50,564 nucleotides of DNA from Shigella phage vB_SsoS-ISF002: the sequence record MF093736; one strand, written 5' to 3'. Under the pieces are notes generated by a model. The model did not search any database. It saw only the letters and a list, made by a program, of their open reading frames with translations, and was not told where the DNA came from. Below, one piece after another: positions 1 through 50,564 of the stretch (position 1 is the stretch's first letter; the number at the start of each line of letters is the position of its first letter). A program made the position numbers and the translations under genes.

Positions 1-207
1 GATGTTATCACTGAGATCGCAAAGAAGAATAAAGGGCGCGCTCCTATTCATAGCATCGTTGCAAAGTGCCGTAACGTTACTCCGTTCAACGGTCAACAGA
101 AAGTATCTGAGCGAATCGATAGTCTTCTTATCACGCTCGAAGAGATGAACTACACTTGCCGGATTGATGATATTGTTTTCATTAATCCTCGACTGATGGG
201 TTAATAA
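1..207 (+). CDS. 3' end of a CDS that starts before position 1; frame 1 is open to a TAA at 205-207
   Basis: Open frame from base 1 (DVITEIAKKNKG...NPRLMG*). It is in-frame with the CDS that runs off the window end, if the sequence is circular. Confidence 0.4.
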
Positions 208-208
208 T

Positions 209-616
209 ATGCTTCTTCTTTTAGATCTGTTCAGGTTCTGCGAAGGTTACGACAAATACACTCGACAGCACATAGCGAAATTTATATACGCCCACAAGGA
301 AAGTGAGCGATTTGCTAAGGCCGCCGGAATGACTCGCCGTGAATTTACAAGCGCGCTATCTAAGGAGTTTTGCGCACGCTGCGTGACTGAGGGTTATCTT
401 GATTGCAAGGGTGGATTTTACTGGTGCAAGGGAAAGATCAAGCGCCCGGTAATGATGAAGCTGATGTGTATTGATGGCTACAACAATCGGTATACGTGGG
501 AAATGATGCACATTGGAGAGATGAGTGATGAAGATTTGTTTGGCGAACGTAGAAACATTGATAGATCGGAACGTCGAATTGTGCGCAAGGCTCCAGCTTA
601 CGAAAGAAGAATTTGA
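209..616 (+). CDS. hypothetical protein (135 aa)
   Basis: ATG-initiated ORF in the rightward arm; no recognisable motif. Confidence 0.4.
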   Translation: MLLLLDLFRFCEGYDKYTRQHIAKFIYAHKESERFAKAAGMTRREFTSALSKEFCARCVTEGYLDCKGGFYWCKGKIKRPVMMKLMCIDGYNNRYTWEMMHIGEMSDEDLFGERRNIDRSERRIVRKAPAYERRI

Positions 617-805
617 ACAAGGGTTGTTGAGTCTGTTACTCACTTCAATGAGGGCCAGTAACGAAAGCGAGCATAATCTTTGCGACAAGGAGGGGGAGTT
701 ACTCCTTCACGTAAAAAGGTACAAATAGCACTTTTTGTTAAAACACCCGATCTCGTATCGGGTATATTTGTTTCATCGAAACGAAGCGACCCGAAGGAAA
801 GCATT

Positions 806-1021
806 ATGTCTAACAAATTTTTAGTAGTTCGCGTTTACAACCACTCTAACGGTACTAGCAGTGAGATTCCTACTCTTTACAGTAAAGCTGATGGATGGAC
901 CGAAGAATCAGCGGTAGCTAATGAGAAGAAGATTGCTGAGATGTACGGTGACACTTGCGAGTTTGAAGTTCGAGAATATGCAAAACTCACTAACGAGAGT
1001 TACATGTGGGCAGATGCATAA
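806..1021 (+). CDS. hypothetical small protein (71 aa, start moved to internal ATG)
   Basis: ATG at 806 preceded by aaggaaag; followed immediately by the hairpin at 1025..1050. Overlaps the convergent spanin ORF. Confidence 0.35.
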   Translation: MSNKFLVVRVYNHSNGTSSEIPTLYSKADGWTEESAVANEKKIAEMYGDTCEFEVREYAKLTNESYMWADA

Positions 1022-1438
1022 AAGAAAAGGAGGCTTAGCCTCCTTTTTTTCGTCCTTACGAATTGAAAAATAAACCAGCAATAGGCCAATGAAAACGAGA
1101 GTCCATCCTGCAATTGCATCGTACCAGTTTTCTGGCTTTGTTACTGTGATGCTTTCAGCGTTAACCGTGTTAGCCTTAATGGTTGACACTTCAATTGACT
1201 TCTTCAAGGAAGAGTCAATCTTTCCTACATTGGACTTCTCAACTTTAACATCTCGCTTATCTTCGGATTTTGCGGTTACTCCTGCTAATTGCTTTGTGTT
1301 CTCCTCTCCGATTTGTGCTGTAACTTCCGGTTTAGATCCGATTAAACCGCTCAGGGCAGATGCCGTAGAGCAACCGGATAGAGAAATAACACCAACAGCC
1401 ACTGTAATCGCAATGCACGTTTTCTTCAGTTTCATCAT
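908..1438 (-). CDS. unimolecular spanin (N-terminal lipoprotein signal plus C-terminal transmembrane helix); true 3' end uncertain
   Basis: N-terminus [24 protein letters not shown] has a lipobox (LSGC); a hydrophobic helix [15 protein letters not shown] sits near residue 110-125. Position is downstream of the endolysin. The ORF continues through the 1025..1050 hairpin. Confidence 0.5.
1025..1050. terminator. bidirectional rho-independent terminator at the convergence of the two arms
   Basis: Perfect 10-bp stem aaaaggaggc / gcctcctttt with a 3-nt loop, flanked by an A-run and a T-run. Confidence 0.6.
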
Positions 1439-1923
1439 AATTCCTTAACGCAATACGCGTATTCTTCAGCGCGTCGGTTCTTGAGTCCTCTAGACACTTC
1501 TCGCTTTTTTGTTTTTGGGTTGTAGTAGTATACCCATCGCCATAACTGATTGCACGCTTCCTTGTGCTTACTCTGATTTATTAGCTTAAGCATTGTAGAA
1601 GATCCGAACGCGCCAGTTCCAACGTTGAAAGTGAAGCTGTACAGTGACGCGCGCATCGTTACCGGAATATCAACATTCACCTTTTTGTCAACGTATCGCT
1701 GAGCGACGCCGATATGTTTTATCAGCAATGCATCGCATTCTCGCTTAGTGTATTTCTTACCAGGTATGACGTCCGGCCCGGTTATTCCGCTGCATACGGT
1801 AGGGACTCCGGCTATATCGTAATACACCTCGTATTCTATACCTTCGATTCGTTCCAGTAGGGTAGGTGTCAACGTCAAAGCGGCCCCGATCGATGCGCCT
1901 ATAACGTTATTTTTTAAGCTCAT
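1435..1923 (-). CDS. endolysin, T4-lysozyme-like muramidase with a possible N-terminal signal-anchor (SAR) segment
   Basis: Catalytic triad spacing E-8aa-D-5aa-T in [19 protein letters not shown]; weakly hydrophobic Gly/Ala-rich N-terminus [17 protein letters not shown]; 162 aa. Confidence 0.8.
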
Positions 1924-2138
1924 TATCTCCCCCTGATCTTAAGCGCCTTATTTAGATCGCCATCGTTTAACGCTTCCTGAATTGCCTTACTATCACGATA
2001 CTTCCAGTATGCACCCCAGGCACCAAAAAGCAGAAAGCAAATGAATGTAGCGCCAGCAATATAAAGTTGCCCTGTCGCCGCCCCTACCAACGAAGCACCG
2101 CCCGTGCTTGACGTAGCTGCTGTTAAAAATTCTTTCAT
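1923..2138 (-). CDS. holin (71 aa from internal ATG; longer 92-aa form possible to 2201)
   Basis: Small protein with a hydrophobic core ([21 protein letters not shown]) and charged C-terminus, directly upstream of the endolysin. ATG at 2138 is preceded by ggtgag. Confidence 0.55.
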
Positions 2139-5517: not shown

Positions 5518-5930
5518 TTCGTTAAATCGTATATTGCCAGCTTGAATTGCTCAAATCCGTATGCAACGGCAGAGAATCCACCGCGATCCCGAACCTTTTT
5601 GAGAAACTCCCTTTGCTTATCGCTGACTGGTGACGCCTTTCCCTTGCCGGACTTATTAACCCGTTTGAGTTCGATAGCTGCGAACGGGTAACGTGAGTTT
5701 ACACCAATCAGGATAACGAAATCTGACACACCTTTAAGTAATCCAGCCTGCTCATCCCTGAGTGCTGAAGTGATTGTTTTTTCACCTTCATTTACAGTGT
5801 GCCAAAATAGAAGGTGTGGGAAGTTGTATTTCAGCCAGGAAACGCAATCTACCTGATGAGCGTCCTCCTTTCTCGTGTCGCTAGGATCTCTCTCGTAAAA
5901 TTCTAAATAATCACCTTTGTCTGTAATCAT
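5514..5930 (-). CDS. VRR-NUC domain nuclease
   Basis: PD-(D/E)XK-like arrangement (SDFVILIG ... AIELKR); directly downstream of and overlapping the helicase gene. Confidence 0.65.
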   Translation of the reverse strand: MITDKGDYLEFYERDPSDTRKEDAHQVDCVSWLKYNFPHLLFWHTVNEGEKTITSALRDEQAGLLKGVSDFVILIGVNSRYPFAAIELKRVNKSGKGKASPVSDKQREFLKKVRDRGGFSAVAYGFEQFKLAIYDLTK

Positions 5931-9568: not shown

Positions 9569-9588
9569 TTACTTAAGGAGTTTATACT

Positions 9589-11382
9589 ATGGCTTTATAT
9601 AGACGCGGCACTGCATCAATGGATGCAGACGGCACGGTTCACGGAACCGATACAAAATGGAAAGATCAACTTGCTCTGATTCGAGTCGGTGCAACTATCG
9701 TATTCCTGGAGCAACCAATTAAGCTGGCGGTGATTAGCGATATCGTTAGCGACACAGAGTTAAAGGCTATCTCTACGGATGGTCAGACTGCCGCTGACGG
9801 TAAGTATGTGATCCTGCTTAACGATTCGTTGACTGTTAACGGATTAGCTCAAAACGTTGCTGAGACGCTTCGATACTATCAAAGCAAAGAGACTGAGATC
9901 GCGGCAGCTATAGATCTGATAAATCAGCTTGATATGAATAAACTTGAGCAAATAGTTGCTGATGTGAATCAGGCGAAATCTGATTCTCAAGCTGCGCAAA
10001 ATCAGGCTGAATTAGCGCGTGACGCAGCCAACGCTGCACGCGATGAAACTAACTCAATCAAGAATCAGACGCAACAGATTGTTGACGGTGCTGTCGGTAG
10101 CATCAATGCGGCTAAGGATCAGGCTATAACCGATGTGCAGCAAAAAGAAAATTCATCCATCACTCACATTGACTCAGAAGAAGCGGCGGCGATTCAGGCA
10201 ATTAATGACGCAAAAGGCGATCTGTCAGGTTACGTTAATGACGCTCAGACGGCAGCACAAACGGCGACCTCTGCAAAAAACGACGCTCAGGCAGCGCGTG
10301 ACGATGCGGTAAGCTCAAAAGATGCGGCTGCGGTAAGTGCTCAAGAAGCAAAAGACGCAGCTAACAGCATCAATGCTGAAAATCTTTTAACTAAGGATGG
10401 CAATCTAGCTGGTCTTGAGGATAAAAAAGAGTCAAGAAAAAATATTGGGTTAGGTGAAAATGATGCTGTTAACTTTCTTACTATTAACACCACTGGCGCT
10501 ATAGCTGCAGGAAGGAATTCATGGGACGGTTCTAGCTGGGGTAGTCAGTCCATATTGTCATCATTGATGATTATGTCACCTGATGGAATATCTACGCCAG
10601 GTATTTACGTCAGAAAAGAACGTAGCGATAATGGTTATGCTGGGACTTTATTATTTTATGAAGGGGCAAACTACTTCGAGACTAACAATAGATTTAGAGC
10701 CAATCAGTTTTTATGCCAGAAAACATCTATGGGTTACAACCAGATGTGGTCTGCTTCATGCTTCCAGGGTAATTCTTACACCGCCGATAGTGGCGCTGAA
10801 AACTATCAATCACTTGTTGCTGGATCGTGTGATACAAGGGGGCAAGGGTATGTTGGCGGCGTAGCATTTGGCATGATGACTACGGGTAATGCTGAATGGC
10901 CCAGAGCACAAATATCAGTAGGCACTCAAGATAGGGATGTAGCAGGCAATATTGGTCTGCAAATGCATTTCAGGTTTATGGCTTCAGGGCAAATATCTTA
11001 CGCTGGACCGCAAGGGGCTGGAAGTTTCCAACAGGTTCCGGCATCTGACAGAAATATAAAGCACAGCATAAAGGATGATGAATCAAGCATCGCATACAAC
11101 AACATAAAGTCAATGAGATTTAGGAACTTTATATTTAACGACGATGAGCAAGAAAGGGTAAGGCGAGGTGTTATAGCTCAGGAGATAGAAGAGATCGACA
11201 ATCTATATGTTAAGAGAAGGGTGTATGAGAGCCACGAGCTAAACGGGCCAAAAGTTGAAAGACTTGAGCTTGATACAACTCCTTTATTGCTTGACACTAT
11301 GAGAGCTTTACAGGATACAATAAAGAAAGTTGAAGAGTTACAAGAAAAGATAAAAATGTTGAAGAGTTACAAGAAGAGATAA
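9589..11382 (+). CDS. tail fibre protein with a C-terminal intramolecular chaperone domain
   Basis: Long Ala/Gln/Asp-rich coiled N-terminal half; C-terminal VPASDRNIKHSIKDDE...AQEIEEI resembles the autocleaving chaperone domain of phage fibres and endosialidases. Confidence 0.7.
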   Translation: MALYRRGTASMDADGTVHGTDTKWKDQLALIRVGATIVFLEQPIKLAVISDIVSDTELKAISTDGQTAADGKYVILLNDSLTVNGLAQNVAETLRYYQSKETEIAAAIDLINQLDMNKLEQIVADVNQAKSDSQAAQNQAELARDAANAARDETNSIKNQTQQIVDGAVGSINAAKDQAITDVQQKENSSITHIDSEEAAAIQAINDAKGDLSGYVNDAQTAAQTATSAKNDAQAARDDAVSSKDAAAVSAQEAKDAANSINAENLLTKDGNLAGLEDKKESRKNIGLGENDAVNFLTINTTGAIAAGRNSWDGSSWGSQSILSSLMIMSPDGISTPGIYVRKERSDNGYAGTLLFYEGANYFETNNRFRANQFLCQKTSMGYNQMWSASCFQGNSYTADSGAENYQSLVAGSCDTRGQGYVGGVAFGMMTTGNAEWPRAQISVGTQDRDVAGNIGLQMHFRFMASGQISYAGPQGAGSFQQVPASDRNIKHSIKDDESSIAYNNIKSMRFRNFIFNDDEQERVRRGVIAQEIEEIDNLYVKRRVYESHELNGPKVERLELDTTPLLLDTMRALQDTIKKVEELQEKIKMLKSYKKR

Positions 11383-11393
11383 AAATGTTGAAG
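11329..11393 (+). repeat. 29-bp tandem direct repeat (2.2 copies) spanning the tail fibre stop codon
   Basis: gttgaagagttacaagaaaagataaaaat followed by gttgaagagttacaagaagagataaaaat, then gttgaag. Confidence 0.9.
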
Positions 11394-13676: not shown

Positions 13677-14203
13677 TGCGTTTATCTCCTTCGTTTACGA
13701 TGAATCCATTATAGCCATTAACGGCGTTTAGTCAATCGAATACATGTAATTGGTGTGTAATAGCGTGTCTATATCGCTCAAGTTACAACCAGCATTAACG
13801 GAATCAATTGCTTAAGTCTATTTTTATGTGATGTCTACTGTGTAATACTTGTAACCGCTTTTTCTTAGAAATACAGAGATAGCTACAAGTAGAATCCATA
13901 TTGATTAAATTTTGAACATATATGATAGAAATTTGACGAATCAATCAAATCACCAGTTACACGATAGACAACTGTTACACAACAATAATTATATATATAA
14001 AGCTAAAATTAAATATTATCTATCTATATATATTATATAGAGTTTTTATCATATCCCTCTGCTGTCGGGTGGGGTGGATTTTGTAACACCCGCTCCGGTT
14101 ACAAAAATAGACACCCGTTACACGAAAAAAACTGTAATCGTGCTATTGCAATAAAAGTAAATGCGACATACAATGCAATCACACTAACGACGAGGACATA
14201 CAA
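13677..14203. promoter_or_regulatory. AT-rich divergent intergenic control region
   Basis: 527 bp non-coding; atatata tracts; GTTACAC repeats; palindrome TTGTAAC-N10-GTTACAA at about 14080..14103; TAGACAACTGTTA element shared with the 44.9-kb region. Confidence 0.5.
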
Positions 14204-28774: not shown

Positions 28775-28829
28775 GATTACTTCTCCTTAGTTAATAAAAA
28801 AAGCCGTGATTATGTTCACGGCTTCAATA

Positions 28830-37954: not shown

Positions 37955-38065
37955 TTAGTATCTCCCTAAAAATAACTTTGCCACATTGATGATAGTGTGA
38001 TTGATGATTAACAGGATGATAACCGTCAATACCGGATGTGCTGCAATAAATTCGTATAGGTTCAT
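37955..38065 (-). CDS. small hydrophobic peptide (36 aa; not in the supplied ORF track)
   Basis: MNLYEFIAAHPVLTVIILLIINHTIINVAKLFLGRY*; its ATG overlaps the phosphatase stop (ATGA). Confidence 0.3.
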   Translation of the reverse strand: MNLYEFIAAHPVLTVIILLIINHTIINVAKLFLGRY

Positions 38066-38595
38066 TCATCCACCCCGTGAGATTTTAAATGATCGTGAAC
38101 GTTATCGCCATAGTCAACTACAGCGTAAGTGGTTATTCCAAGCGAGCGGAATAATGGAATAATTTGCGGTGAGTCATCCCAGGCCGCCAGAATGTTATCA
38201 ATGCCGATCGCGCGCACCGCCTCTTCTTTCATTACTGTGTCTTTCCGGTTATCGGTGTGTGGTCGCATAATCAGGTAATCATATCGAGCGCCGTGATGCT
38301 TAAGCCACAACTCAGATGCGTAACGCACCTCATCACTTCGCCCGGTTAAAATGATCACATGATAACCAGCGGAAAACATAGAGTTCATCACATCGATCGT
38401 GCTTTGGATAGGGTTGTCAAATATTGCCGCGCGGTTAAACTCGGACCAGCTTTCAGTCAAGTGCAAATCTTTTGTCGGCAGCAAATGAAGTCTACCGGAT
38501 CCGTCACTAAGTGTCCCGTCAAAGTCAAAGATTGCGACGCGGCGCGGACCGAGAAACAGGTTGATTGTCTGGCCCCAAATGGTGATTTTATCCAT
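38062..38595 (-). CDS. HAD-family phosphatase, candidate polynucleotide 3'-phosphatase
   Basis: HAD motif I FDFDGTLSD near the N-terminus; downstream motif ILTGRSD. Confidence 0.6.
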   Translation of the reverse strand: MDKITIWGQTINLFLGPRRVAIFDFDGTLSDGSGRLHLLPTKDLHLTESWSEFNRAAIFDNPIQSTIDVMNSMFSAGYHVIILTGRSDEVRYASELWLKHHGARYDYLIMRPHTDNRKDTVMKEEAVRAIGIDNILAAWDDSPQIIPLFRSLGITTYAVVDYGDNVHDHLKSHGVDE

Positions 38596-38660
38596 GATTT
38601 ATTCCTCTGATTGGTTGCTTAACTCAACGAAGGGCATTCTAACAAATGCCCTTGAGCAAG

Positions 38661-44605: not shown

Positions 44606-45217
44606 GGCTTGCAGGTCGATTTTAAGTGTGGTTAATCGTGTTAATCGTGTTAATCGCTTTCCCCATATAAATATGAGCCGATAAAACTACTGTATATATA
44701 AACATGAATACAATAATCAGAGCATCCAACGATTAACATAGTAGACACGCTATACAACCATATTACAGATAATAGTATCTATATATATAAATAAAAAAAA
44801 TACTTATATATTATATATATACATATAGATATATGTATATTATAAGGCGTAATTTGGTGTAATTTTGTCTACTATTGAGATTCAGGCAAATTGTAGACAA
44901 CTGTTAACACACGGTCAAGTGTAACCGTAATCGATAGCACGTTTTGCTAAAAATGGAGATAACCACCAGGCGAACCGGGTAACACCAGATCCTCCCTCTC
45001 ACAATCATTGCATTCTAAGCAACAAATAAACCAACTGTTGCACACCGTGCAATAATCACGTTTCATCATTCGTAATCAATAACAATCAAGGTTATTACAC
45101 CTATTCCAGTATTGATGGAATAATGAGCAATTATTGGAATAGCATTTTTTGCTAACGACTCGGTCGGGTAGGTCGGGTATAGTCCGGCCCATAAACCAAT
45201 CAGAAGAGGAAGCAACA
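44606..45217. promoter_or_regulatory. AT-rich divergent control region between the two arms (candidate origin, packaging or early-promoter hub)
   Basis: 612 bp non-coding; tatatata tracts; 3 tandem GTTAATCGT 9-mers at 44631..44657; boxes at 44934 and 45138; CAACTGTT elements at 44897 and 45034. Confidence 0.5.
44631..44657. repeat. three tandem 9-bp repeats (gttaatcgt, gttaatcgt, gttaatcgc)
   Basis: Direct reading. Confidence 0.9.
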
Positions 45218-45922
45218 ATGAAATTAATCTGGTCACTATTCGACGGTTCAGGTCTTGCAGGTCATGAGCTAGCAAAGCAAGGCCATAAGGTGATGTGCTT
45301 CAACTTTGACGGAGCCGATCACGGAGATTACGCAAAGTACAACGCCAGGGTTGAGCATCATAACATTGAGTATGTGAACGTCTTTATTAATGAGAAGTTC
45401 GAACGTGATGCTATCGCGGGTGTGTATGGCAAGCCTGATTTCATCATGGCATTTCCTCCATGCACTGACCTGGCTGTTAGTGGCGCTGCTCACTTCGCAA
45501 GAAAGCGTGAGCGAGATCCGTTATTCCAGGAGAAGGCTGTTGCTACCGCCCGGATTGCTGCGAATATTGGCGACTCTCTTGGCGTGACTTACATAATTGA
45601 GAATCCGGTGAGTGTCCTGTCATCTGCCTGGAGAAAACCAAATCACTCCTTCAACCCCTGGGAGTATGGCGGCTATCTTCCTGAGAATGACGCACACCCC
45701 TGGTTCCCTATGTATATTGCGCCGCGCGATGCTTATCCGAAGAAAACTTGTCTTTGGACCTCGGACGATTTTGTCATGCCGGAGAAAAAACCTGTAAGCC
45801 TGCCTGACGGGTACTCTACGCAACACAGCAAGCTGGGCGGCAAGTCGGCAAAGACGAAGCTGATACGATCCCTGTCGCCTCGTGGATTTTTCAAAGCGAT
45901 CGCAAATAGCACTTTTTGTTAA
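45218..45922 (+). CDS. compact DNA (cytosine-5)-methyltransferase-like protein
   Basis: Motif I-like LFDGSG, catalytic PC-like FPPCTDLAVSG, ENV-like IIENPVS; start at ATG with RBS gaggaagcaaca. Confidence 0.5.
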   Translation: MKLIWSLFDGSGLAGHELAKQGHKVMCFNFDGADHGDYAKYNARVEHHNIEYVNVFINEKFERDAIAGVYGKPDFIMAFPPCTDLAVSGAAHFARKRERDPLFQEKAVATARIAANIGDSLGVTYIIENPVSVLSSAWRKPNHSFNPWEYGGYLPENDAHPWFPMYIAPRDAYPKKTCLWTSDDFVMPEKKPVSLPDGYSTQHSKLGGKSAKTKLIRSLSPRGFFKAIANSTFC

Positions 45923-49199: not shown

Positions 49200-50564
49200 A
49201 TGTTTAATATTAAGCCAAAACTGAATTACCAACAGATTATTGAGATCGCCAATAGCACTGGAGTTAATCCGGTGGCGATCGCAATTCGTGAAAACAGCTA
49301 TGGTGACTCAGTTTCATTTTGGCAAGATCCGATCGATATCAATAGCGGCAACGATAAGTTCCCTCTGATTTCGTTAGGTGGCGATAACCTGGTATTCGAA
49401 TATGCAAAAGCAAAGGCCGAGTCTGTACAGTTCCCTGTTTCGTCTGCGTACGCTCATTTCATTGGGTGCATCTCAGCCGCGATGCTCGGGAAGTTTTGGG
49501 TGCAATATCACGGAGAAGAGCAACCTACCGCTCTTTACATGGTAATCAGCCAGCCACCTTCAACAGGTAAATCTGCGATTAACTCCGCAGCGATTACGCC
49601 TATGCGCGCAGAGATTCAGCGACTGAATGAAGAGCGAAAAAAGGAACGTATCCGTTTAACCAGTCAGCTACGTCAGGTCGAGAAGGAAATTAAAAACGAC
49701 CCGAAGGGTAACACGACGGCGGCGCTGTACGAGGACAAAGAAAAACTGGAAGAAAAGATCAAGAAGATGGCTGATATTGTTTTCGCGGTATCAGATCCTA
49801 CACCTGAAGGTCTTGCGAAGGTGGCGGCTGTTCAAGGTCACTTCTCAGTAATCTCTGATGAGGCGACAGCAATCAATACATTGCTCGGACTGACTTATGG
49901 CGGTTCTGATAAGAAATCAAACAGCGAACTTATCCTTAAGGCGTGGGATAAAAACCATATGGAGGTCGCGCGTTCAAACCAAGACAACAACTTATCTCTT
50001 TGCCCGGTCGGTTCGATCTGCGTCATTGCGCAGGATGAAACAATCAAGGGTATCATGGACGCAGGCCAGAGAGGCATCGGCGTATCTGAGCGTTTCCTTT
50101 TAGTTCGTGAGGAACCGCTTTTAGGTACTCGTATTCTTTGTGATGAAAATGGTGATGCGCTGTATAAGGAAGTCGATCGAGGATTGGTGAGTAAATATTA
50201 TCGACTCGTACACAACATCATGAAAGAGGATAACGTTGTTTTATCTGTAAGCCGTAATGCTATGCGTGAATTAAACCTTGCGCGTCAGGCGATGGAACCG
50301 GATTTCGCCGCAGGTGGGAAATACTCTCACTCAATGCTACGCGGTCATCTCGGCAAGTTCGATAAGCACGCCTTGCGTATTGCTTCAGTTCTCCACACGA
50401 TAAAGAATTGGGAGGGTGAATCACCGAACCGTTCCAACCGTGAGATTGACCTTGAAACAATGCAGGAAGCAATCATGATCTTTAATGAGCTTTCCAGGAC
50501 TTATCTGTCGTCTGCCAGCGCTGCCGGGTATGCTGGTGATGATGCTGAATCTCGTAAGCTGATT
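49200..50564 (+). CDS. 5' part of a large P-loop-containing protein; the ORF runs off the window end in-frame
   Basis: ATG at 49200 with RBS aaggag; Walker A-like VISQPPSTGKSAI; no stop before base 50564; the last full codon ends exactly at the window end. Confidence 0.5.
   Translation, partial: MFNIKPKLNYQQIIEIANSTGVNPVAIAIRENSYGDSVSFWQDPIDINSGNDKFPLISLGGDNLVFEYAKAKAESVQFPVSSAYAHFIGCISAAMLGKFWVQYHGEEQPTALYMVISQPPSTGKSAINSAAITPMRAEIQRLNEERKKERIRLTSQLRQVEKEIKNDPKGNTTAALYEDKEKLEEKIKKMADIVFAVSDPTPEGLAKVAAVQGHFSVISDEATAINTLLGLTYGGSDKKSNSELILKAWDKNHMEVARSNQDNNLSLCPVGSICVIAQDETIKGIMDAGQRGIGVSERFLLVREEPLLGTRILCDENGDALYKEVDRGLVSKYYRLVHNIMKEDNVVLSVSRNAMRELNLARQAMEPDFAAGGKYSHSMLRGHLGKFDKHALRIASVLHTIKNWEGESPNRSNREIDLETMQEAIMIFNELSRTYLSSASAAGYAGDDAESRKLI

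Follow-up and report, generated by a model that had tools for sequence, protein, structure and literature searches.

The window analysed here is the whole 50,564-bp genome of Shigella phage vB_SsoS-ISF002, a T1-like phage (Tunavirus, Drexlerviridae), and its left end is occupied on the minus strand by a T1-type lysis cassette in which holin, endolysin and spanin follow one another in that order. The holin (1923..2138, minus strand) is of the T1 type, with 71 aa from an internal ATG, and matches phrog_2877 over residues 22-92 of a 92-aa open reading frame. The endolysin (Phage_lysozyme; 1435..1923, minus strand) has a stop codon that overlaps the spanin start (ATGATGA). As deposited, the spanin ORF (908..1438, minus strand) begins MMKLKK and encodes 176 aa from the ATG at 1438, while the public record starts at the second ATG, at 1435, for a product of 175 aa. 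The ORF converges on a plus-strand gene of 71 aa (806..1021) that matches phrog_27210 over its full length (E 1.9e-51) and is also annotated in ADB-2, ISF001 and LeonhardEuler. Rfam scans at gathering thresholds and tRNA scans across the entire 50,564-nt window yielded no matches.

The spanin ORF product is identical to the database entry “Rz-like spanin [Shigella phage vB_SsoS-ISF002]” (175 aa), which is the sole member of its protein cluster and the one database protein to span the ORF in full. It matches phrog_1804, annotated as Rz-like spanin, with an E-value of 4.9e-47 over residues 7-132 only, and the T1/JMPW2 U-spanin cluster at 79% identity (E 1.7e-57). Direct reading of the translation places a lipobox, the signal of an outer-membrane lipoprotein, at L20-S21-G22-C23 in the context VISLSGC (1370..1381, minus strand), and a C-terminal transmembrane helix at residues 108-126 (1061..1117, minus strand; Kyte-Doolittle 19-residue mean of 2.2), so the hallmarks of a unimolecular spanin that the earlier note had recognised, LSGC and one helix, are upheld together with the family matches. 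The periplasmic domain (residues 24-107) contains zero cysteines; all 58 surveyed u-spanins likewise have no cysteine in this domain (PMC6139136). The prototype of the class, gp11 of phage T1 (AAP49988.1; PMC6139136), is also encoded last, after holin and endolysin, and at approximately 79% identity shares the same LSGC lipobox, the Cys-free periplasmic domain and the C-terminal transmembrane helix (PMC6139136). With a lipobox, a single C-terminal helix, homology, cassette position and a Cys-free periplasmic domain all present, ORF 908..1438 is predicted to be an ordinary T1 gp11-type unimolecular spanin, with a lipoprotein signal, a periplasmic domain and an inner-membrane helix near the C-terminus. 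The one feature of this type that it lacks is the short cytoplasmic end of 7-8 residues with a stop codon in the loop of a hairpin and a length of about 133 aa, and it lacks this feature only because its sequence is one base short.

The shortfall lies past the helix, where the coding strand reads CGT AAG GAC GAA AAA AAG GAG GCT AAG CCT CCT TTT. By direct reading, the run of seven A bases (A7; 1044..1050, minus strand) encodes Lys-Lys, serves the plus-strand gene as terminator T-tract, and is one base shorter than in the nearest relatives. Adjoining it is a predicted bidirectional intrinsic terminator hairpin (1025..1047, both strands) with the sequence AAAAGGAGGC-TAA-GCCTCCTTTT, whose arms at 1047..1038 and 1034..1025 form a 10-bp stem around a TAA loop (1035..1037) and are followed by CTTTT. 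The hairpin has a folding energy of -17 to -19 kcal/mol and is also detected by a consensus terminator scan, and the layout of A7, 10-bp stem and then TTTTCTTTT falls between the convergent stops at 1019..1021 and 1035..1037. On the plus strand the same A-run reads as a T7 tract after the stem, and gene 806..1021 ends with its TAA (1019..1021) 3 nt short of the hairpin; the element is therefore predicted to be a bidirectional rho-independent terminator common to both convergent genes. In the earlier note the A-run was placed at about 1045..1051 and the hairpin at 1025..1050; the run of seven and the 10-bp stem both stand, with positions corrected to 1044..1050 and 1025..1047, respectively.

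The TAA in the hairpin loop (1035..1037, minus strand) is the normal stop position of the family, and here it is out of frame by one base. Adding a single A to the run gives ...RKDEKKGG followed by TAA at 1037..1035, a 134-aa product that differs from phiD2-2 GP04 and FCWL1 gp63 at 2 residues (V/I and A/V), and this repaired translation confirms the earlier expectation that an extra A would yield KDEKKGG, a stop and a protein of about 134 aa. The inferred native coding region (1035..1438, minus strand) encodes 133/134 aa, closes with KKGG-TAA, and is reached only if the run has an eighth A or the frame shifts by -1 within it. We infer that this 133/134-aa form ending in KKGG is the working protein of the phage. 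As deposited, the frame instead reads through the hairpin and overlaps the convergent ORF 806..1021 by 114 nt, as was originally described, and continues for 44 codons past K132, or 42 residues beyond the 134-aa form. This frameshift tail (K135..R176 plus stop; 908..1034, minus strand), antisense to gene 806..1021, ends at a TGA (908..910) and holds a second hydrophobic stretch at residues 137-156 (Kyte-Doolittle 1.79) in addition to three cysteines.

A protein search over 5.8 billion proteins returned 72 homologues besides the record's own protein. In 68 of the 72, the spanin ends inside the terminator hairpin with a terminus of the KKEA, KKGG or NKGA type followed by the stop codon; the remaining four are Sfin-2, a homologue in a different genomic context, and two entries whose frameshift lies further upstream. 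The close homologues (n = 52) are nearly all 133 aa in length. At the DNA level, more than 20 loci have the stop codon in or at the loop, invariably 18 nt from a conserved CGTAAG, against 17 nt from CGTAAG to the loop TAA in vB_SsoS-ISF002. Several combinations of run and loop arrive at this spacing. A7 with GGAGGC-GTAA-GCCTCC ends in KKEA and TAA (T1, JMPW2, ADB-2, LeonhardEuler, Eco_BIFF, SH6 and IME18), and A7 with GGAGGC-TTA-GCCTCC ends in KKEA and TAG (JMPW1, DELF2, Shfl1, pSf-2 and the metagenome contigs L020-L025), as does GG followed by A6 with a TTA or CTA loop (Sfin-1, Sfin-6 and Sfin-3). A TAA loop is read as KKGG and TAA after GG and A7 (L029) or after A8 (phiD2-2 and FCWL1), and as IKGG and TAA after AAATAAAA (ISF001). 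The 18-nt spacing is thus kept by pairing changes in the A-run with changes in the loop, which explains the conserved KKEA, KKGG and NKGA termini. Phage T1 shares with vB_SsoS-ISF002 both the A7 tract and the GGAGGC/GCCTCC stem of the terminator, but its GTAA loop puts A7 in frame and gives KKEA and 133 aa, whereas the TAA loop combined with A7 misses the stop; T1 also differs in being without the 71-aa convergent gene.

The hairpin extends beyond the close relatives. In homologues at approximately 40-63% identity, the stop codon is still in the loop, with stems of GGAGCC/GGCTCC and AGCCCC/GGGGCT in individual folds. These were used as RNAalifold on a MAFFT alignment of the hairpins from 14 loci returned no structure, the indels having misaligned the arms. 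The hairpin is retained in every relative whose spanin is last in the cassette and faces a convergent gene, and as it is kept in relatives with three different stem sequences (GGAGGC/GCCTCC, GGAGCC/GGCTCC and AGCCCC/GGGGCT), it is more than a chance occurrence. Two homologues in which the next gene is co-directional have no such hairpin. In the arrangement proposed here, the last four codons of the spanin would be built from the terminator A-tract and the left stem arm (Lys-Lys-Glu/Gly-Ala/Gly), with the stop in or at the hairpin loop. From these sequence comparisons, the C-terminus of T1-like u-spanins appears to be dictated by the predicted terminator that they share, and such an origin of the C-terminus would explain why frameshifted ORFs recur at this site in deposited genomes.

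The earlier note had pointed to the spanin genes of related phages as a check on the length of the run, and the three nearest records (phiD2-2, FCWL1 and ISF001) all have 8 bases where there are 7 here. The nearest alleles are those of FCWL1 (gp63; 99.4% identical over 461 nt) and phiD2-2 (GP04; 98% over 701 nt), with an identical TAA-loop hairpin and T-tract; both differ in carrying A8, which leads to KKGG and 133/134 aa, against A7 in vB_SsoS-ISF002. In 1.8 kb around the site, the local topology is ((vB_SsoS-ISF002, ISF001), (FCWL1, phiD2-2)), with 36 shared sites supporting the split, and the variable positions all either set ISF001 alone apart or separate the first pair from the second. 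A TAA loop with an 8-nt run is common to the three neighbours, so the most parsimonious change is that vB_SsoS-ISF002 alone lost one A, which would make A7 a derived state private to this record. ISF001 is itself a doubtful record whose independence from the vB_SsoS-ISF002 record is uncertain, though it is one of the three witnesses to the 8-nt run. A 64-nt segment spanning the site matched 63 phage records by BLAST, none of them at 100%, so that the allele is unique among them. The earlier note had also held that homologues of the same extended length would speak against its explanation, and none was found among the 72 proteins or with this allele among the 63 phage records. No copy of the exact allele, CG followed by A7 and GGAGGCTAAGCCTCC, turned up in IMG/VR, JGI metagenomes or GTDB genomes, but neither did the positive control (the A8 allele of phiD2-2 and FCWL1), and these scans are without power and are not counted as evidence, in contrast to the phage-record BLAST and the protein search, which do have power.

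The vB_SsoS-ISF002 state is one step from several in-frame alleles, reached by adding an A in the run, adding a G in the loop, or changing the loop A to T. The possibility that it represents an ancestral bridge between the KKEA and KKGG alleles was considered and rejected, as vB_SsoS-ISF002 is sister to ISF001 inside the 8-nt clade (36 sites). Alternatively, the stop may have been lost by substitution, from an ancestor with A7 and a TTA loop (GCT TAG), as in JMPW1, Shfl1 and L020-L025, in which TAG became AAG through a single T-to-A substitution within the loop. Those metagenome contigs align gap-free over 701 nt, and their local 60 nt differ at the loop base only; however, they are 94.7% identical overall, compared to 98-99.4% for the records with A8 and a TAA loop, and substitution requires more steps given that the three other members of the clade all have the TAA loop and the 8-nt run. 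We regard this route as improbable. A different proposal is that the deposited protein is a new, longer spanin variant with a functional C-terminal extension, acting for instance in regulation or as an additional membrane segment. The ORF is open, the stretch in the tail is hydrophobic enough for a membrane helix, and the 175-aa form is annotated in RefSeq, but none of the 72 homologous proteins has the tail, and the cytoplasmic end in relatives is 7-8 residues long. Within a 111-nt overlap, the 12-15 nt differences from relatives produce 2-4 amino-acid changes in the plus-strand gene compared to 11-14 in the tail frame, which is thus unconstrained. The tail also sits past the conserved terminator, and its length is fixed by a chance stop that is placed elsewhere in relatives. 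In all 12 relatives checked, the antisense frame stays open over 34-66 codons and yet is not read, which makes the tail's length a passive property. By these comparative data a functional tail is effectively refuted and scarcely credible, and the 42 residues do not appear to be a selected coding sequence. More probably, the frame would skip the loop TAA and then drift antisense through the neighbouring gene to the chance TGA at 908..910.

A further alternative accepts A7 as real and assigns the missing base to decoding. The run forms an A_AAA_AAG heptamer, a dnaX-type slippery sequence, in the zero frame (1043..1049, minus strand), and a -1 slip would read GGA GGC TAA, so that spanin could be made either by -1 frameshifting on the heptamer or by RNA polymerase slippage adding an A, in each case ending at the loop TAA, with the hairpin as a stimulator. 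The zero-frame product would then be a non-stop or extended dead end, in an accidental “savior-indel” style that throttles spanin dosage. The -1 product would be exactly the family-standard KKGG-stop, no -1 heptamer shifts more readily in E. coli than A_AAA_AAG (PMC5009743; PMC4066793), and “savior” indels rescued through low-level frameshifting are on record (PMC5009743). In E. coli dnaX, an identical zero-frame heptamer is followed by a stable hairpin 3' of it, and the -1 frame stops almost at once, but vB_SsoS-ISF002 differs in having no spacer, no Shine-Dalgarno-like element at the right distance, and a layout that is not conserved. Known frameshift stimulators such as that of dnaX lie approximately 5-9 nt downstream of the heptamer. 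Here the final base of the heptamer (1043) is already the first of the G-C stem, leaving a spacer of 0 nt and a stem already melted with AAG in the A site, and the Shine-Dalgarno-like AAGGA ends 3 nt upstream rather than at about 10 nt. Efficient transcriptional slippage is known for runs of 9 or more, and A7 falls below this length. In reporters, heptamers without stimulators reach only 2-10 times a background of 0.055% (PMC4066793), which argues against efficient use of this one. The out-of-frame layout is found in none of the 63 phage records and none of the 72 proteins, and T1-type alleles have the same heptamer already in frame, so it is better read as a by-product of the terminator A-tract than as a recoding signal. 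The heptamer itself is present, but no sign of programmed frameshifting was found in stimulator spacing or conservation. Recoding as the source of the spanin is thus quite unlikely, slightly more so even than loss of the stop by substitution, and -1 slippage at A7 is most likely a trickle only.

The account that remains best supported is that a private A-run, one base short, frameshifts an ordinary u-spanin past the loop TAA, and we hold it to be very probable that this, and not a new kind of spanin, accounts for the long tail. Whether the base is missing from the record or from the phage is a closer question, for which the earlier note had offered a homopolymer-length error or a genuine variant. 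The frameshift is private and located at the A-run, as suspected, and the choice between the two rests on record-level comparison, which leans towards error. The change is private, lies in a homopolymer, and contrasts with n+1 bases in the nearest relatives, as expected of a homopolymer error. In a three-way comparison over 46.3 kb, vB_SsoS-ISF002 has at most 19 private substitutions, all of them explainable by noise in ISF001, together with two private frame-changing indels, namely the missing A and a 29-bp imperfect tandem duplication (copies at 11329..11357 and 11358..11386, with one base different between them). The duplication rewrites the C-terminus of the tail fibre from ...EEIKMLKSK to ...EKIKMLKSYKKR and looks like a mis-resolved assembly bubble with two alleles placed in tandem. 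A genome with essentially no private substitutions but two private frame-changing indels leans to an assembly artefact. Across the whole genome, the alignment to ISF001 forms one block with four indels only, the A-run among them, and among the annotated genes a private C-terminal extension compared to FCWL1 and phiD2-2 is confined to the spanin. On the opposite side, the genome looks clean apart from the two indels, with no other gene broken relative to FCWL1 and phiD2-2 and no general excess of broken genes. A candidate second frameshift at approximately 45756 (GG, compared to GGG in FCWL1 and phiD2-2) was rejected, as the 234-aa form matches the “DNA methylase” of ISF001 and SH6 and the relatives are the odd ones. 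A sister genome from the same laboratory was assembled with SOAPdenovo at default settings, which counts towards an error, from Illumina reads at more than 1000x coverage (PMC6667099). If the same platform was used here, consensus errors in an 8-base homopolymer would be uncommon, which speaks against a record error, as do the natural variability of the run (A5-A8 in the family), which makes real slippage plausible, and the fact that the change touches only the last two residues and the cytoplasmic tail, where a real frameshift is best tolerated. In total, the evidence leans towards a consensus or assembly error as the origin of the missing base, with a very recent, real replication slip, in a lineage that had otherwise undergone essentially no change, as the somewhat less probable origin.

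The real slip overlaps with a rival reading of A7 as a genuine, tolerated mutant allele, which differs only in holding that this allele is the one the phage actually expresses. If so, termination at the hairpin would leave the mRNA without an in-frame stop, ribosomes would stall at its 3' end, and the product would be tmRNA-tagged and degraded (trans-translation), whereas transcription past the hairpin would allow the 176-aa protein to be made, with 50 residues in its cytoplasmic tail. The phage would survive either because laboratory culture requires spanin function under some conditions only or because the tail does no harm. For lambda Rz/Rz1, the spanin-null phenotype is mainly visible when divalent cations stabilise the outer membrane, and a conditional phenotype of this kind is consistent with tolerance of the allele. 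Tolerance is also in keeping with the intact lipobox, periplasmic domain and transmembrane helix, and with the alleles ending in KKGG, which must have passed through a stop-less intermediate in coming from KKEA alleles. Natural variation in the run offers a partial parallel in a second deposited Tunavirus record, Sfin-2, whose run (A5) is one A short of that of its siblings Sfin-1 and Sfin-6 (A6) and whose 144-aa ORF (Sfin2_64) also continues through the terminator, although in a different frame, with 11 extra residues and a TTA loop. Sfin-2 is, however, labelled a “partial genome” and has its tape-measure gene split in two, and its short run may be an error too. Against a tolerated allele also stand its uniqueness among the 63 phage records and 72 proteins, the backbone essentially free of private substitutions, and the second hydrophobic stretch and three cysteines, which one would hardly expect in a cytoplasmic tail, a segment of 7-8 residues in all relatives. 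We therefore treat a tolerated, expressed allele as possible but doubtful, well ahead of the substitution, recoding and functional-tail proposals.

Earlier cases of a damaged u-spanin frame are on record among deposited T1-like genomes, Sfin-2 being one of them. In Escherichia phage ADB-2, the deposited frame of the T1-family u-spanin (B508_00385) is damaged, which Kongari et al. attributed to a sequencing error (PMC6139136); the damage there is N-terminal, with loss of the lipoprotein signal, whereas in vB_SsoS-ISF002 it is at the stop codon. On the comparisons above, the spanin gene of vB_SsoS-ISF002 would belong to a known type and carry a private defect of one base where slippage is prone to occur, rather than represent a new architecture for spanins. 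What is publicly annotated in this phage as “Rz-like spanin, 175 aa” is most likely a frameshifted ORF whose native form is 133/134 aa and ends in KKGG, and the spanin in this record needs repair or re-sequencing before it is used in spanin surveys or in lysis-cassette engineering. If A7 is real, the phage would instead be a natural test, of modest interest, of the amount of cytoplasmic tail that a u-spanin can bear and of non-stop rescue at a terminator.

Homopolymer length differs from the nearest relatives at more than the spanin gene. The window contains 17 long A/T runs (at least 7 nt), and three of these have a length unlike that in Escherichia phage FCWL1 and phage phiD2-2: the run in the spanin ORF (1044..1050, minus strand) and those at 14125..14131 and 28796..28802. 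Run-length polymorphism is common between the window and these two relatives.

A second Tunavirus record with a spanin run one A short was also encountered, that of Shigella phage Sfin-2 (MK972831.1, locus 646..1080), in which GG is followed by A5, compared with A6 in its siblings Sfin-1 and Sfin-6. The Sfin-2 spanin reads as a 144-aa ORF that extends across the terminator, and that record carries no annotation for the convergent 71-aa gene.

Several other genes differ from their counterparts in the relatives. A polynucleotide kinase/phosphatase homologue (38062..38598, minus strand) lacks the C-terminal 25 residues found in FCWL1 and phiD2-2, with approximately 74 nt of FCWL1 (5770..5843) absent from the window at this gene, and the gene is annotated as similarly short in Shigella phage vB_SflS-ISF001. 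Near position 45756, the window, ISF001 and SH6 read GG where FCWL1 and phiD2-2 read GGG; the additional G truncates the methylase-like gene to 182 aa in the latter two, compared with 234 aa for the form in the window (45143..45922, stop-to-stop). At the 3' end of the tail-fibre gene (9577..11382, plus strand), the window carries a private 29-bp tandem duplication (11329..11386), the copies of which are one base apart (GAAAAG vs GAAGAG). This duplication shifts the frame, such that the tail-fibre C-terminus changes from ...EEIKMLKSK in ISF001 and phiD2-2 to ...EKIKMLKSYKKR in the window, each followed by a stop codon. From its sequence, the duplication looks like a mis-resolved assembly bubble.

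The layout of two records also bears description. The linear window record is cut within a gene, with 49200..50564 joining 1..204 to form a single 522-aa ORF of the same length as FCWL1 gp66, a "DNA helicase" (DUF3987 family), and the record has no terminal repeat at its ends. In the FCWL1 record (PP558327.1), all 78 of the 78 annotated CDS lie on the plus strand, and BLAST orientations show that the minus-strand blocks of relatives are each inverted in place, examples in window coordinates being 679..1022, 209..617 and 49200..50564. The gene blocks of FCWL1 seem to have been individually reverse-complemented.

The ISF001 record (MG049919.1) originates from the same laboratory as the window. 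It aligns to the whole window as one collinear 50-kb block at 96.96% identity, with 1,475 evenly distributed mismatches, 58% of which exchange A for T or G for C, in either direction. Across the four genes checked, nonsynonymous differences outnumber synonymous ones by 49 to 5, compared with 8 to 17 for phiD2-2, and other phages side with the window at nearly all sites of difference. Judged by these comparisons, the ISF001-window differences do not match the pattern of natural divergence, and for this reason the ISF001 record looks like the backbone of the window with noise added. The AAATAAAA found at the ISF001 spanin run is probably an A8 carrying one noise-type change.
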